Positions 1 to 1,565 of a stretch of 1,565 bases of DNA are shown piece by piece. The stretch is from assembly GCF_024223415.1 (NCBI RefSeq), contig NZ_CP100510.1, one strand, 5' to 3'. Position 1 is the stretch's first letter. Each line of letters begins with the position of its first letter. The stretch comes from Escherichia coli (lineage in GTDB: Bacteria > Pseudomonadota > Gammaproteobacteria > Enterobacterales > Enterobacteriaceae). The notes under the pieces are model-generated. The model saw only the letters and a program-made list of their open reading frames with translations. It ran no database searches and was not told where the DNA came from. Position numbers and translations under genes: made by a program.

Positions 1-49
1 ATGTGCAAATGTAATACCGTCACCCGCGACGATATTCCGTTTGCCATCT

Positions 50-74
50 GGTCAGGGCTTCGCCCCGACACCCC
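50..74. repeat. 25-bp perfect inverted copy of the oriT hairpin segment (exact reverse complement of 1386-1410)
   Basis: GGTCAGGGCTTCGCCCCGACACCCC at 50-74 is the exact reverse complement of GGGGTGTCGGGGCGAAGCCCTGACC at 1386-1410. The asymmetric flanks (1 nt one side, 5 nt the other) also match, so this is a true inverted duplication and not just the hairpin's own near-palindromy. Identity stops exactly at both ends. Confidence 0.9.
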
Positions 75-110
75 GCATCAGTGCGTACGTGCTCAATGTG
101 GTTTCCGGTT

Positions 111-171
111 CTCTTCCGCTTCCTCGCCCACTCGCTCACTAACGTTCGGTCGCTGGGGCTGCGGCGAGCGG
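111..171. other. Conserved ColE1/pMB1 origin-proximal block (candidate primosome-assembly / single-strand-initiation site)
   Basis: CTCTTCCGCTTCCTCGC (111-127) and GGCTGCGGCGAGCGG (157-171) are identical to the flanks of the block CTCTTCCGCTTCCTCGCTCACTGACTCGCTGCGCTCGGTCGTTCGGCTGCGGCGAGCGG that I recall lying about 45-125 bp downstream of the replication start in pBR322/pUC (similar in p15A); the middle is diverged. Same orientation as the oriT match. Function as a pas/ssi site is inferred. Confidence 0.55.
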
Positions 172-476
172 TGCCACCTCTCGCATGTTGTCGGTGATTC
201 CGCTGTTGTTCTTTCGGGGATAAGTCGTCAGATAGCCCTTCAAACGCGCTCAGAAGCTCTCAGACGCACGAAACGGGGTTTAAATGCCCGTCAGGGCATG
301 GAAGGCGCGAAAAACGCTTACAGAGCGTTTCAGGAGGTCAGGCGCGCCGATACCCCTAGCCAGGGGCTTTCAGGTCGCCAGGAACCGCGCCAGCCCCCTG
401 CAAAGCCCATTTGCACGGTACAGGCAGCCACTCGGTTGGTAGGTGGTCGTAGACCGTCGGTGTTACAGCGATGGGG

Positions 477-559
477 GTCTGGGGTTCTCCCCAGACGGTT
501 TCCGGTTGCGCTCAAGGCGCTGCCGGAACCGTGGCGGCTCGATCGTTCTGGAGATCGGG
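477..559. ncRNA. Cluster of three consecutive GC-rich stem-loops; candidate RNA I / RNA II-like antisense-control region (strand, ends and function undetermined)
   Basis: SL1 477-496: perfect 8-bp stem GTCTGGGG/CCCCAGAC, loop TTCT. SL2 497-530: GGTTTCCGG...CCGGAACC outer stem (one bulged T) plus inner GCGC/GCGC stem, loop TCAAG. SL3 538-559: CGATC/GATCG core stem, 8-nt loop GTTCTGGA. Three hairpins in about 85 nt is the RNA I architecture. Weak convergent promoter candidates flank it (see findings). No canonical terminator found. Confidence 0.3.
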
Positions 560-622
560 GAGCAAAAACACGCAAGGGATTTTGAGGCGGCAAAAGAGCA
601 ATGCAGGATAGACAACCCGATG

Positions 623-640
623 TCAAATGTTAACATTTGA
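623..640. repeat. 18-bp perfect palindrome TCAAATGTTAACATTTGA in the AT-rich spacer between the gene's 3' end and the stem-loop cluster
   Basis: Exact self-complementarity across 18 bp, seen directly. Lies in a locally AT-rich island at about 600-670; function unknown (protein-binding site, unwinding element or promoter element). Confidence 0.9.
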
Positions 641-686
641 ATCAGATTGTCCAAAAACGGGGTTTTTGCCTGTGCCTGCCGCTGGC

Positions 687-1166
687 TCAATTTGAAAACA
701 TGGCCATGATTCGGCGCTGAATATCACCGTCTTTGTTGACCAGTGTTTTAGTGACAAACGCCGCGTAGTTTTTAGATGTGTTGTATCCCTTCCAGACTTC
801 ATGTGGATCGAGTGCATACGCACAAACCTTACCAGCAACAGGAATTCTGACTAACGCGTTTTTTGATTCTAAGTAGTTGAGCCAGCGCTTAATTGTGCTT
901 CGGCTAACACCCAATTTATCTGCTAAAAACTGCTGATCGGCAACAACAGCACCGCATGAGGGATCTATGTGCTCAGCTAAAAACGAGTAAAGCGGTATTG
1001 CTACAACTCCCTGCTTGTCCTTCGACAGTTCTCGGATCCTTTCCCAGCCCTTCTGATAAACCTGGGTGAATGGGCCGTTATTTTTCGGATCTGATTCCGA
1101 TTCTTTGTTTAATTTTTCCAGTTCTTTTAGACGCTTTTTTCGCTGCTCTTCAGTCCCGATATACAT
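687..1166 (-). CDS. 159-aa winged-helix (HTH) DNA-binding protein; best guess a small-plasmid replication initiator or autoregulatory maintenance protein (RepA of tiny pKL1-type plasmids, or RepL-like). Family assignment is from memory and unverified; a cargo transcriptional regulator is the alternative.
   Basis: Only long ORF with coding-like composition. ATG is the reverse complement of 1164-1166, preceded by a GGAG Shine-Dalgarno (rc of 1174-1177) with a 7-nt spacer; stop TGA is rc of 687-689. Helix-turn-helix at about residues 77-98 (DQQFLADKLGVSRSTIKRWLNY, encoded about 873-938) followed by a wing-like segment (ALVRIPVAGKVCAYALDP). N-terminal 30 residues are K/E-rich. Upstream region is dense in operator-like repeats. 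Confidence 0.8.
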   Translation of the reverse strand: MYIGTEEQRKKRLKELEKLNKESESDPKNNGPFTQVYQKGWERIRELSKDKQGVVAIPLYSFLAEHIDPSCGAVVADQQFLADKLGVSRSTIKRWLNYLESKNALVRIPVAGKVCAYALDPHEVWKGYNTSKNYAAFVTKTLVNKDGDIQRRIMAMFSN

Positions 1167-1185
1167 GGTAAATCTCCACGGTCTA

Positions 1186-1225
1186 ATGATGGCTCAAATA
1201 TAAGCCATCATAGCTCAAACGTAAA
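1186..1225 (-). promoter_or_regulatory. Candidate sigma70 promoter of the 159-aa gene overlapping a 9-bp perfect inverted repeat (candidate autoregulatory operator)
   Basis: On the minus strand: -35 TTTACG (rc of 1220-1225), 17-bp spacer, -10 TATATT (rc of 1197-1202), predicted start about 25-30 nt upstream of the ATG. Inverted repeat ATGATGGCT (1186-1194) / AGCCATCAT (1203-1211) has the -10 hexamer in its 8-nt spacer. GCTCAAA recurs at 1192-1198 and 1213-1219, 21 bp apart. Promoter assignment is by consensus match only. Confidence 0.5.
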
Positions 1226-1246
1226 CCATGATAGGTCGACCTAGCT

Positions 1247-1292
1247 CACACATGCGTGAGCTAACCTTAGACCACACATGCGTGAGCTAACC
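1247..1292. repeat. Two tandem 20-bp perfect direct repeats CACACATGCGTGAGCTAACC (1247-1266 and 1273-1292, period 26 bp); iteron- or operator-like
   Basis: Exact 20/20 identity seen directly. Each copy has internal dyad symmetry (CTCAC-ACATGC-GTGAG); the first copy extends to an 8-bp stem TAGCTCAC/GTGAGCTA. They lie 22-70 bp upstream of the predicted -35 of the gene. Related AGCTCA/TGAGCT half-sites recur at 1212-1217 and 1304-1309. Confidence 0.85.
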
Positions 1293-1355
1293 CATAATGC
1301 AAGTAGCTAAAAAATCAATAACTTACAAAATCGCCCTTAAATATCTTTTCTGCTG

Positions 1356-1385
1356 AAAGTGTTGCGCAAAGCGGAACACTTTTTT
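1356..1385 (+). terminator. Terminator-like hairpin followed by a T-run on the plus strand, directly abutting the oriT hairpin
   Basis: AAAGTGTT (1356-1363) pairs with AACACTTT (1375-1382), plus an inner CGC/GCG stem around an AAA triloop, followed by TTT (1383-1385) and then GGGG. The T-run follows the hairpin only on the plus strand. No convincing upstream plus-strand promoter was found, so the role is uncertain. Confidence 0.3.
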
Positions 1386-1446
1386 GGGGTGTCGGGGCGA
1401 AGCCCTGACCCAGTCACGTAGCGATAGCGGAGTGTATACTGGCTTA
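1386..1446 (+). other. ColE1/pMB1-type origin of transfer (bom/oriT): recognition hairpin plus conserved nic region; predicted nic CTGG|CTTA between 1442 and 1443
   Basis: GGGGTGTCGGGGCGAAGCCCTGACCCAGTCACGTAGCGATAGCGGAGTGTATACTGGCTTA matches my recollection of the pBR322 bom region (GGGTGTCGGGGCGCAGCCATGACCCAGTCACGTAGCGATAGCGGAGTGTATACTGGCTTA) with about 2 substitutions; the 36 bp ending at CTGGCTTA are identical. Imperfect hairpin GTCGGGGC-GAA-GCCCTGAC at 1391-1409. Which strand is nicked is assumed from the motif orientation. Confidence 0.8.
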
Positions 1447-1565
1447 CTCCTCTGCAAGCCTTACCAGCTGTGATTTTTGCCAGATTTCACGCTCTCAACG
1501 TTCAACAGCTCCATCATGGTTTTGCCGTCCGTTCACCGCTAAAACGCCTCAGAAATCGGGACAGG

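Follow-up and report, generated by a model that had tools for sequence, protein, structure and literature searches.

The locus examined here, a 1,565-bp stretch of Escherichia coli DNA (the window, meaning that whole stretch), raises the question of whether it is a complete miniature plasmid, and by what means such a molecule would be replicated and passed between cells. A preliminary description, made from the sequence alone, had proposed a circle linearized between a ColE1-type origin of transfer (oriT, or bom) and a ColE1-like block, comparable with pBR322. The window is the whole of a circular E. coli plasmid belonging to the pKL1 / Col(MG828) family. Its replicon is of the pKL1 RepA type and is not ColE1-like, although the order of its bom and ssiA-like modules is. 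The region around the junction of the record ends is not neutral spacer and contains a second, inverted oriT, which the preliminary description had missed.

Identity and circularity

In PLSDB, megablast finds 12 or more records that are exactly 1,565 bp long, are all annotated as circular and match positions 1–1565 with 100% identity; the hosts of these identical plasmids are E. coli or Klebsiella. The record NZ_CP027128 has exactly the sequence of the window, rotated by an offset of 528, and an 80-mer spanning the junction from 1565 to 1 is internal to it; these records bear out the proposed complete circle. The plasmid pABU of E. coli ABU 83972 is 99.8% identical overall, and the window is a cryptic plasmid of this pABU-like, high-copy type. 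Complete E. coli genomes contain approximately 27 full-length copies at 98.8% identity or above, these 1.5-kb plasmids occur in approximately 3% of such genomes, and the 1,565-bp and 1,552-bp types were found together in one strain. The plasmid is thus ordinary, common and already present in public databases, and the pKL1 family has long been known. A 1,197-bp record, NZ_CP027139, was considered as a minimal replicon devoid of both oriTs and was rejected, as it is linear and incomplete, with ends near the repeat arms. Tiny contigs that represent family members also occur in the assemblies of unrelated taxa, and the family is therefore worth flagging as a likely contaminant.

One chromosomal full-length copy, the only one found, lies between two IS26 copies in E. 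coli L26. Together with the tiny contigs in unrelated assemblies, it could suggest that the window is either an artefact of assembly or an excerpt from something larger, carried in a chromosome or a large plasmid as an IS26-flanked passenger. However, the L26 copy is an IS26 cointegrate that was opened at window positions 1255–1262, with an 8-bp duplication, and the window ends are not its breakpoint. Dozens of independent circular records of 1,565 bp exist, most of which begin at exactly window position 1 and some of which are rotated differently, and the excerpt or artefact reading is barely credible. The proposal of a self-contained circle stands, the window having been found embedded in a larger replicon only in this copy, opened elsewhere.

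The shared start of most records is probably due to a spurious open reading frame (ORF; 1–585, plus strand), annotated as a hypothetical protein in some of them, that overlaps the oriT and ssi modules. The ORF was rejected as a gene: its substitutions are distributed 12/23/21 by codon position, relatives carry 1-nt indels, and neither this nor the other small ORFs of the window gave a family match.

The replicon

The repA gene (687–1166, minus strand) encodes a 159-residue winged-helix initiator of the pKL1 RepA / RepL-like family, with 78% identity to pKL1 RepA over the full length (E = 3 × 10−94). HTH_36 is the only family that passes the cut-off. The 697 homologues detected are almost all located on contigs of 0.5–4 kb, and a RepA-like winged-helix gene is present in every backbone variant. 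To judge from its sequence, repA is under purifying selection, with substitutions distributed 13/7/46 by codon position and no frameshifts. The core of the AF2 model adopts the winged-helix fold, with structural matches only to wHTH regulators, and a sequence search of the PDB with Rep returned no match.

The rep promoter, operator and oriV occupy positions 1167–1355 (minus strand) in a layout that agrees with that of pKL1, in which Rep-binding inverted repeats (IRs) and an IHF box are located upstream of rep (PMC3832669). The region comprises a sigma70-like promoter (1225 to 1197, minus strand), two palindromic units of 25–26 bp (1242–1266 and 1268–1292; AGCTCAC-N6-GTGAGCT) and a single IHF consensus site (1313–1325) in an AT-rich stretch; its predicted fold has a z-score of −4.5, and a search for DnaA boxes found none. 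The repeats are in the same position as those of pKL1 and differ from them in sequence. A terminator-like hairpin with 12-nt arms followed by a T-run (1356–1385, plus strand) lies between oriV and bom. On the basis of the pKL1 literature and this layout, we infer that replication is RepA-dependent and autoregulated. RepA would bind the palindromic repeats just upstream of repA, and the bound protein would both repress its own promoter and open the neighbouring oriV, which is AT-rich and would be bent by IHF. The remaining steps would fall to host enzymes, probably aided by the ColE1 ssiA-like priming module.

Two other modes of replication were weighed against the RepA-dependent one. The first is a rolling-circle mechanism, as for pBuzz and the Firmicute RepL plasmids (pSN2-type), with the structured GC-rich backbone acting as a single-strand origin. 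RepA does give a weak match to RepL (PF05732; E = 0.005), and a pMG828-1 protein with 47–51% identity to RepA is named RepL by PGAP; twin-oriT plasmids of similar size are described as rolling-circle, and the backbone is cassette-like with strongly conserved hairpins. However, the RepL match of 16.8 bits is under the Pfam cut-off of 20.3, and rolling-circle initiators are HUH or Rep_trans proteins with catalytic tyrosines (PMC5714925), whereas RepA has only the winged-helix core, with no nuclease-fold match for the AF2 model and no HUH motif in the sequence. The pKL1 literature, with its oriV bearing an IHF box and Rep-binding IRs, also argues against rolling-circle replication, which we consider unlikely.

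The second is a small replicon of the ColE1 type (RNAII/RNAI, Pol I-dependent), arisen naturally by deletion as a pBR322-like bom+ mob− derivative, in which the GC-rich positions 173–640 encode a divergent primer RNA. The ColE1-like bom and ssiA in ColE1 order would fit this, as would the 'Col' name in PlasmidFinder-style typing (PLSDB assigns the replicon type Col(MG828) to pKL1 and to the records that match the window exactly), a backbone from 1383 to 620 common to plasmids with different rep modules, and stable hairpins at 477–592 loosely reminiscent of the RNAI stem-loops. Against it, a search with Rfam detected no RNAI in the window even at E ≤ 1, while scoring 73.8 bits in the ColE1 control, and the window has no similarity to ColE1 outside bom and ssiA, whether in the ori/RNAII region or at cer/Xer. 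A RepA gene under purifying selection downstream of a pKL1-like oriV, and the RepA-like gene in every backbone variant, further disfavour a ColE1 replicon, which was rejected as very improbable.

bom and the noncoding backbone

The ColE1-type oriT is located at 1381–1446 (plus strand) and is identical to that of ColE1 (NC_001371) at 64 of 67 positions. It contains a hairpin arm shared with the second oriT (1386–1410) and the nic region CTGG/CTTA (1439–1446), in which the nick is predicted between 1442 and 1443, after the position reported by Varsaki et al. 2003. The bom sequence matches 4,392 small mobilizable plasmids.

Positions 111–331 form a noncoding module that, on homology, is a candidate single-strand priming signal. 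The first 62 nt (111–172) are approximately 79% identical to a block of ColE1 that lies 3′ of bom on the same strand, 110–170 nt downstream of the ColE1 ori, which is the ssiA / n′-pas position. Positions 114–331 as a whole are shared, at approximately 83%, with noncoding DNA that precedes the initiator gene in IncX4 plasmids. The window has no ColE1 ori adjacent to the ssiA-like block, which forms no significant hairpin and folds not significantly better than shuffled sequence. The order and orientation of bom and the ssiA-like block agree with ColE1 far beyond chance, and the alignment with ColE1 places the linearization between them, both as the preliminary description had stated. The 94-nt spacer of ColE1 is replaced in the window by 229 nt that contain the inverted R64-type oriT. 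At the left end, CCGCATCAG is present at 73–81. The motif GCATCAGTGCG (75–85) matches the copy located 12 nt after the ColE1 nic, and not necessarily the pBR322 copy by the conserved block to which the preliminary description had referred.

Beyond this module, a GC-rich conserved noncoding backbone extends over 332–592. Within it, positions 431–473 are near-invariant even in a distant Klebsiella plasmid, and two hairpins (477–496 and 500–528) are very stable (z = −4.6 and −3.4) and invariant in 13 sequence variants. Owing to this invariance, no covariation signal was obtained for 477–528 in a contig scan with an invariant 17-mer, which yielded 15 family members and otherwise mostly chance matches. 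A bidirectional terminator-like module (593–688), composed of an imperfect 42-bp palindrome (611–651) and an A5-N-T5 hairpin, adjoins the rep stop codon and is approximately 95% identical to a segment downstream of the IncX4 rep operon; the 1,549-bp and 1,552-bp types retain the outer arms of the palindrome around a different interior. The stretch from 1383 through the junction to 620 is a conserved backbone shared by plasmids whose rep modules differ.

An R64-type oriT across the junction

The second oriT, of the IncI1/R64 type, is on the minus strand, with its main part at 1–76 and its continuation at 1538–1565. The main part comprises the hairpin arm of an 8-bp IR (74 to 50), the distal half of a 17-bp-type IR (45 to 30), the nick-proximal repeat CGGTATTACATTTGCAC (19 to 3) and the start of the nick core (5 to 1); the continuation contributes the rest of the core and approximately 20 nt of leading-side similarity. 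The record boundary splits the nick core, GCACAT-CCTGTCCCG, of which CCTGTCCCG corresponds to 1565 to 1557 on the minus strand, and the alignment with the IncI1 oriT is continuous through the junction of 1 and 1565. Since the records are cut through this core and start at the spurious ORF, the second oriT is hidden from scanners of linear records. From the IncP/IncI nick motif, with the R64 position taken from secondary sources, the nick is predicted to follow the G of ATCCTG, between 1562 and 1561 (minus strand).

This oriT is 92% identical over 75 nt (six mismatches) to a site in the IncI1/B/O plasmid NZ_CP020511, located 14 bp upstream of nikA-nikB; the matched sites in IncI1/B/O plasmids lie 14–16 bp upstream of nikA/nikB-type genes. 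From the hairpin to the nick core the alignment is ungapped with equal spacing, the 8-bp IR and the nick core are identical, and the nick-proximal repeat has one mismatch, whereas the distal repeat is degenerate and pairs at only 12 of 15 positions. The IncI1 plasmid and family members with three different repeat variants all share one nick core, CACATCCTGTCCCG. As single-stranded DNA, the region folds into the two expected hairpins (z = −3.8), and the layout matches the anatomy of the minimal R64 oriT, with its 8-bp IR, 17-bp IR/NikA site and nick region (PMC3817090). Among the conjugative plasmids in the matches listed, none has an identical site, the best being this 92% over 75 nt. The window contains no nikA or nikB gene beside the oriT, which is therefore classed as an R64-like orphan and not as an I-complex transfer region.

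The same 8-bp-IR hairpin is native to the two oriT types, and this accounts for a long-range inverted repeat of 25–34 nt in the plasmid (34 nt in the window, 50–83 and 1377–1410). Every family member examined retains the two oriTs. That of the ColE1 type does not vary, and the NikA-recognition repeat of the other has three variants; among conjugative plasmids, the nearest counterparts of these variants are those of IncI1/B/O, IncK2/Z and IncI-gamma/K1. A repeat that tracks the specificity for helpers would be expected to give this pattern (PMC3817090). The spacer between the oriTs (1447–1537; 119 nt from predicted nick to predicted nick) is conserved in family members and has no counterpart in ColE1 or IncI1; it would be the first DNA to enter the recipient, whichever oriT were used.

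Probable mobilization in trans

The window encodes no relaxase, as the preliminary description had held, and no RHH or accessory transfer protein, rep being its only real gene. The plasmid is therefore oriT-only, and transfer would be possible only in trans. With two oriT homologues, no relaxase and no mating-pair genes, it has the features by which Ares-Arroyo et al. define pOriT, or relaxase-in-trans, plasmids, a common class. The analogy drawn earlier with pBR322 holds as far as bom+ mob− is concerned and covers only one of two likely routes of mobilization, because the junction bisects the second oriT.

The two orphan oriTs face each other across 119 nt, one per strand. The plus-strand bom would be nicked by an MbeA-type relaxosome from a co-resident ColE1-like mob plasmid, with the pore supplied by a conjugative plasmid. 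At the minus-strand R64-type oriT, an I-complex conjugative plasmid would act directly, its NikA recognizing the site and its NikB nicking it. The two types of helper would send opposite strands. Nicking and transfer at either site are deduced from homology, and the plasmid can probably be mobilized in trans, whether by an I-complex conjugative plasmid or by a ColE1-type mob plasmid acting alongside a conjugative one. Potential helpers are frequent: genes of the nikB type are present in 24% of complete E. coli genomes and those of the mbeA type in 9%. A pKL1-type RepA replicon equipped with two orphan oriTs of different families for dual-helper transfer in trans is the reading that we favour with good confidence. 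A search of the accessible literature found no experiment on this plasmid and none on the mobilization of pKL1. In ABU 83972 the plasmid presumably persists with no other plasmid in the strain, and hence transfer would not be needed for maintenance.

Alternatively, the oriTs might be inactive relics of recombination with ColE1-like and I-complex plasmids, with spread occurring only vertically or by transformation, transduction or cointegration. The lack of an identical oriT among the conjugative plasmids listed and the degenerate distal repeat would accord with this, IS26 cointegration does occur, and the MOB-suite labels for identical sequences are inconsistent (mobilizable or non-mobilizable). 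Yet both nick cores and hairpins are intact and conserved in every family member while the neighbouring sequence and rep module diverge, the variants of the NikA-side repeat are coherent palindromes and not products of decay, and orphan oriTs of this kind are reported to work in pBuzz. Relic status consequently seems improbable, and dual-helper mobilization remains the preferred reading.

More tentatively, and with doubt outweighing confidence, the approximately 800-bp backbone may constitute a dual-helper cassette. In such a cassette, two convergent orphan oriTs of the ColE1/MbeA and I-complex/NikB types would be built round one shared hairpin, a NikA-recognition repeat with at least three coherent variants would track I1/B/O, K2/Z and I-gamma/K1 helpers, and ssi-type priming modules, also found at IncX4 origins, would let either entering strand become duplex. 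No description of this arrangement for the pKL1 family was found in the searchable literature; the pBuzz paper may cover it.

The value of these observations is for annotation and epidemiology more than for discovery. Plasmids of 1.5 kb of the pKL1 type are usually labelled cryptic or non-mobilizable; given the two intact orphan oriTs in the sequence, the relaxase-in-trans class fits them. IS26 can moreover capture the plasmid into resistance islands, bringing two oriTs along. Were experiments to confirm the dual-helper reading, the plasmid would offer a compact model of how minimal replicons track several helper plasmids.

Comparison with known systems

The nearest described relatives include pKL1 (NC_002145, 1,549 bp, from E. 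coli KL4; Burian et al. 1997–2003) and deposited plasmids identical to the window or nearly so, such as pABU. With pKL1 the window shares the Col(MG828) type, gene order, position of oriV, the approximately 800-bp backbone with both oriTs, and a RepA of 78% identity. The window and pKL1 differ in the sequence of the oriV/operator repeats, in a divergent RepA N-terminus, in the interior of the terminator palindrome and in the NikA-side repeat, which is IncI1/B/O-like in the window and IncK2/Z-like in pKL1.

In comparison with pBR322 and ColE1, the bom, the ssiA-like block and their order and strand are common, as is the bom+ mob− state with pBR322, whereas the window has no similarity to the RNAII/RNAI ori, rop or cer. 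The R64 / IncI1 oriT (Furuya & Komano) has in common with the window the 8-bp IR hairpin, the spacing of the 17-bp-type IR and the nick core; that of the window differs in being an orphan, in six mismatches over 75 nt and in its degenerate distal repeat.

Precedents for plasmids with orphan or twin oriTs are pBuzz, pCERC7 and pEC156. The inverse twin oriT concept itself is already published for pBuzz, which Moran & Hall 2019 describe as a 1,982-bp cryptic plasmid with two inverse oriTs, mobilized by a B/O plasmid with the relaxase in trans. By this description, pBuzz resembles the window in its tiny size, in having rep as its only gene, with neither relaxase nor accessory genes, and in its pair of inverse orphan oriTs, of which one or both are of the I-complex type; it differs in being described as rolling-circle; a search for it among relatives through the pMG828-1 rep module found no 1,982-bp record. 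The plasmids pEC156 and pSe-Kan are likewise small enterobacterial plasmids with oriTs of two families and a broader helper range, but they are ColE1 replicons of 4–7 kb that carry cargo genes, and their oriTs pair an F-like site with an R64-like or ColE-like one. The two oriTs of the window belong to the ColE1/MbeA and R64/NikB families.

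Identity and circularity

The window corresponds to an ordinary, already known plasmid, the sequence of which has been deposited many times. A megablast search against 72,556 plasmid records returned at least 12 records of exactly 1,565 bp with 100% identity over the full length, all annotated as circular; they belong to E. coli of human, animal, river and wastewater origin and to Klebsiella. NZ_CP027128 equals the window rotated by an offset of 528, so that an 80-mer spanning 1565->1 is internal to it. The ends are therefore contiguous in a circle, which, together with the identical records, bears out the preliminary description of a complete miniature plasmid. 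The window-identical records and pKL1 itself are typed as Col(MG828), a family on record since pKL1 (1997–2003), and pABU of E. coli ABU 83972 is 99.8% identical to the window. A full-length copy with at least 98.8% identity is present in about 27 of the 5,426 complete E. coli genomes, and a family member with coverage of at least 80% in 160.

The alternative that the window is embedded in a larger replicon was assessed from the one chromosomal copy found, in E. coli L26 (NZ_CP146250.1 1218136-1219708), where the whole plasmid lies between two direct copies of IS26 and adjoins an IS903B/blaCTX-M-65 region. This copy is an IS26 replicative cointegrate, opened at window positions 1255-1262 within the first palindrome of oriV (upstream of rep) with an 8-bp duplication, CGTGAGCT, and brings two oriTs into a resistance island. 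Its breakpoint does not match the window ends, which lie where most plasmid records begin; the window thus represents the free plasmid.

Family members 75–99% identical to the window also turn up, on very small contigs, in assemblies assigned to Streptococcus, Streptomyces, Macrococcus, Flagellimonas, Clostridium, Ursidibacter, Micromonospora, Aurantibacter, Bradyrhizobium, Corynebacterium, Rhizobium and Mycobacterium, most likely because a small enterobacterial plasmid of high copy number was carried over or contaminated them. Related copies appear in PLSDB under S. aureus and Serratia as well.

RepA replicon

The replicon is not of the ColE1 type. Rfam detected no RNAI or other plasmid RNA in the window, even at E<=1, whereas the identical search scored ColE1 RNAI at 73.8 bits, and comparison with ColE1 (NC_001371) revealed no resemblance in the window outside bom, the ColE1-type oriT, and an ssiA-like block.

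The sole real gene, rep (687-1166, minus strand), encodes a 159-residue protein that passes Pfam HTH_36 and shares 78% identity (E=3e-94) with RepA of pKL1 (NC_002145, 1,549 bp). Substitutions relative to relatives number 13/7/46 at codon positions 1/2/3, with no frameshifts, and nearly all of the 697 homologues lie on contigs of 0.5–4 kb. The pMG828-1 homologue is 47–51% identical to RepA, and a pHKP0067.8 protein 24%. Rolling-circle replication is what the RepL-like naming of relatives' proteins (RepL being the PGAP name in pMG828-1) and precedents of the type of pBuzz, a cryptic plasmid with two inverse oriTs, would favour. It is disfavoured here because the initiators of rolling-circle plasmids are nucleases of the HUH or Rep_trans families (PMC5714925), whereas the predicted RepA structure appears to comprise a winged helix only: the AlphaFold model is confident solely at residues ~37–120, which form this fold, and its Foldseek matches are exclusively ArsR/MarR/CodY-type winged-helix regulators, with no nuclease fold among them.

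Upstream of rep are a sigma70-like promoter (1225->1197, minus strand), two palindromic units of 25–26 bp (1242-1292; fold z=-4.5) and, in an AT-rich stretch, the only IHF consensus site of the window (1313-1325); no DnaA box was found in this region. The pKL1 oriV is reported to have this layout: it lies upstream of rep and combines an IHF box with Rep-binding sites and a perfect inverted repeat (PMC3832669). The repeats occupy the same position as in pKL1 but differ in sequence (AGCTCAC-N6-GTGAGCT in the window, GTTGTCGCATCC/TGGATGCGACAAC in pKL1). By analogy with pKL1, RepA would bind the palindromes, autoregulate and open the adjoining AT-rich/IHF region. Strain MIN14 (O7:H4) contains both the 1,565-bp and a 1,552-bp type (NZ_CP069654.1, NZ_CP069655.1), which have a common backbone and differ in the oriV/operator repeats and the RepA N-terminus, suggesting compatibility through differing Rep-site specificity.

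Two inverse oriTs

At the right end, where a bom had been proposed, window 1381-1446 matches the bom of ColE1 at 64 of 67 positions, CTGG/CTTA included. The nick is presumably between 1442 and 1443 on the plus strand, the ColE1-type position reportedly given by Varsaki et al. 2003. The motif and conserved block described at the left end are likewise present: CCGCATCAG sits at 73-81, and 111-172 shows ~79% identity to a block that in ColE1 lies 3' of bom, on the same strand. ColE1 RNAI maps to 645-749 (minus strand), placing ori near 1200 and therefore the matching block 110–170 nt downstream of ori, at the site of ColE1 ssiA, the n' primosome assembly signal.

A repeat finder revealed a 34-nt inverted repeat (50-83 versus 1377-1410), and a second, inverted oriT spans the junction. 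The minus strand from 76 to 1 and onwards from 1565 to 1538 is 92% identical, gap-free, to a site in one IncI1/B/O conjugative plasmid that precedes nikA-nikB by 14 bp, which is where the R64-type minimal oriT lies. The 8-bp-IR hairpin and the nick core, CACATCCTGTCCCG, are identical to that site, the nick-proximal half of the 17-bp-type inverted repeat has one mismatch, and the strand folds as the two expected hairpins (z=-3.8). The R64-type oriT has this same anatomy of hairpin, 17-bp repeat and nick region, and its NikA site, formed by the 17-bp repeat, varies among I-complex plasmids (PMC3817090). The ColE1 order read across the junction stands and the earlier interpretation is supported, with two amendments: the replicon is not of ColE1 type, and the junction holds an oriT that had been missed.

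The record boundary cuts the nick core, with GCACAT before it and CCTGTCCCG after it. The window and most records start at the ATG of an ORF (1-585), so that linearisation falls inside the core and hides the oriT from linear scans. PLSDB labels identical 1,565-bp sequences inconsistently as 'mobilizable' or 'non-mobilizable' (for example, NZ_CP027128 against NZ_CP120556), probably through this effect on oriT detection. The ORF itself (plus strand, 194 residues; 'hypothetical protein' WP_032495510.1 in some records) was rejected as a gene, with substitutions of 12/23/21 by codon position, 1-nt indels in relatives and no family match.

By analogy with the IncP/IncI motif ATCCTG/N, the R64-type nick is predicted to fall on the minus strand, between 1562 and 1561. 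The predicted nicks of the two oriTs face each other, 119 nt apart, with the hairpins outermost, as required for each hairpin to transfer last. One and the same hairpin is native to ColE1 bom and to I-complex oriTs, hence the long inverted repeat. The common arm, GGGGTGTCGGGG (50-74, 1386-1410), resembles the CloDF13 nick sequence GGGTG/GTCGGG (PMC5935869), so the arms could in principle be a substrate for a third type of relaxase. In two records the long repeat seems to have disturbed assembly or caused rearrangement: NZ_CP027139.1 (linear, 1,197 bp) covers only window 182-1378, ending near the two arms, and NZ_CP138471.1 (Klebsiella, 2,967 bp) contains window 1-1446 with extra partial arm/ssi copies, some inverted.

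Conservation and backbone modules

The inverse arrangement is kept in pMG828-1, pKL1 and relatives of 1,552, 1,459 and 1,436 bp. The ColE1-type oriT is constant among the members compared, and for the I-type nick-proximal repeat three or more coherent palindromic variants exist. The nearest conjugative counterpart is IncI1/B/O for the window (92%), IncK2/Z for pKL1 (91.8%) and IncI-gamma/K1 for pMG828-1 (85.9%), each site being followed, after ~15 bp, by a nikA-like gene and a relaxase. The ~800-bp backbone (1383->1565->1->~620) is 92–98% conserved despite strongly differing rep modules.

Three noncoding modules of the backbone have counterparts elsewhere. Window 114-331, which opens with the ssiA-like block, shares ~83% identity with noncoding DNA located upstream of the initiator gene in IncX4 plasmids. 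For 284-473 the counterpart, at ~80% identity, is noncoding DNA adjoining RepA of a 24-kb MOBC Klebsiella plasmid. Window 593-688, which directly adjoins the rep stop codon, has the look of a bidirectional terminator and is ~95% identical to the DNA that follows the rep operon of IncX4 plasmids. These sequence similarities suggest origin-associated or terminator cassettes exchangeable across unrelated replicons. Only 471-610 folds significantly better than shuffles within the backbone (z=-4.6 and -3.4). The GC-rich hairpins at 477-496 and 500-528 are very stable and invariant in 13 sequence variants, and so give no covariation signal; candidate roles include that of a signal for priming, of an RNA element or of a protein site.

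Probable mobilization and comparison with known plasmids

The window contains two intact oriT homologues and no relaxase or ribbon-helix-helix accessory gene, in agreement with the earlier view of an oriT without relaxase, and we infer mobilization in trans by two routes. At bom, a ColE1-type mob plasmid would work together with a conjugative plasmid, the classical situation of pBR322. At the minus-strand oriT, an I-complex conjugative plasmid would suffice on its own through NikA/NikB, a route that pBuzz has been shown to take with a B/O plasmid. As base rates, candidate helpers of nikB type are found in 24% and of mbeA type in 9% of complete E. coli genomes.

The searchable literature yielded no explicit description of pKL1-family plasmids in which a ColE1-type and an R64-type oriT stand back to back and repeat variants track helpers; this reading, judged somewhat less likely than not, is what may remain new. 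Orphan-oriT plasmids are a recognised class (PMC10123127), oriTs of two families on one plasmid have been published for pEC156 and pSe-Kan, and pBuzz is a published case of a tiny plasmid with twin inverse oriTs.
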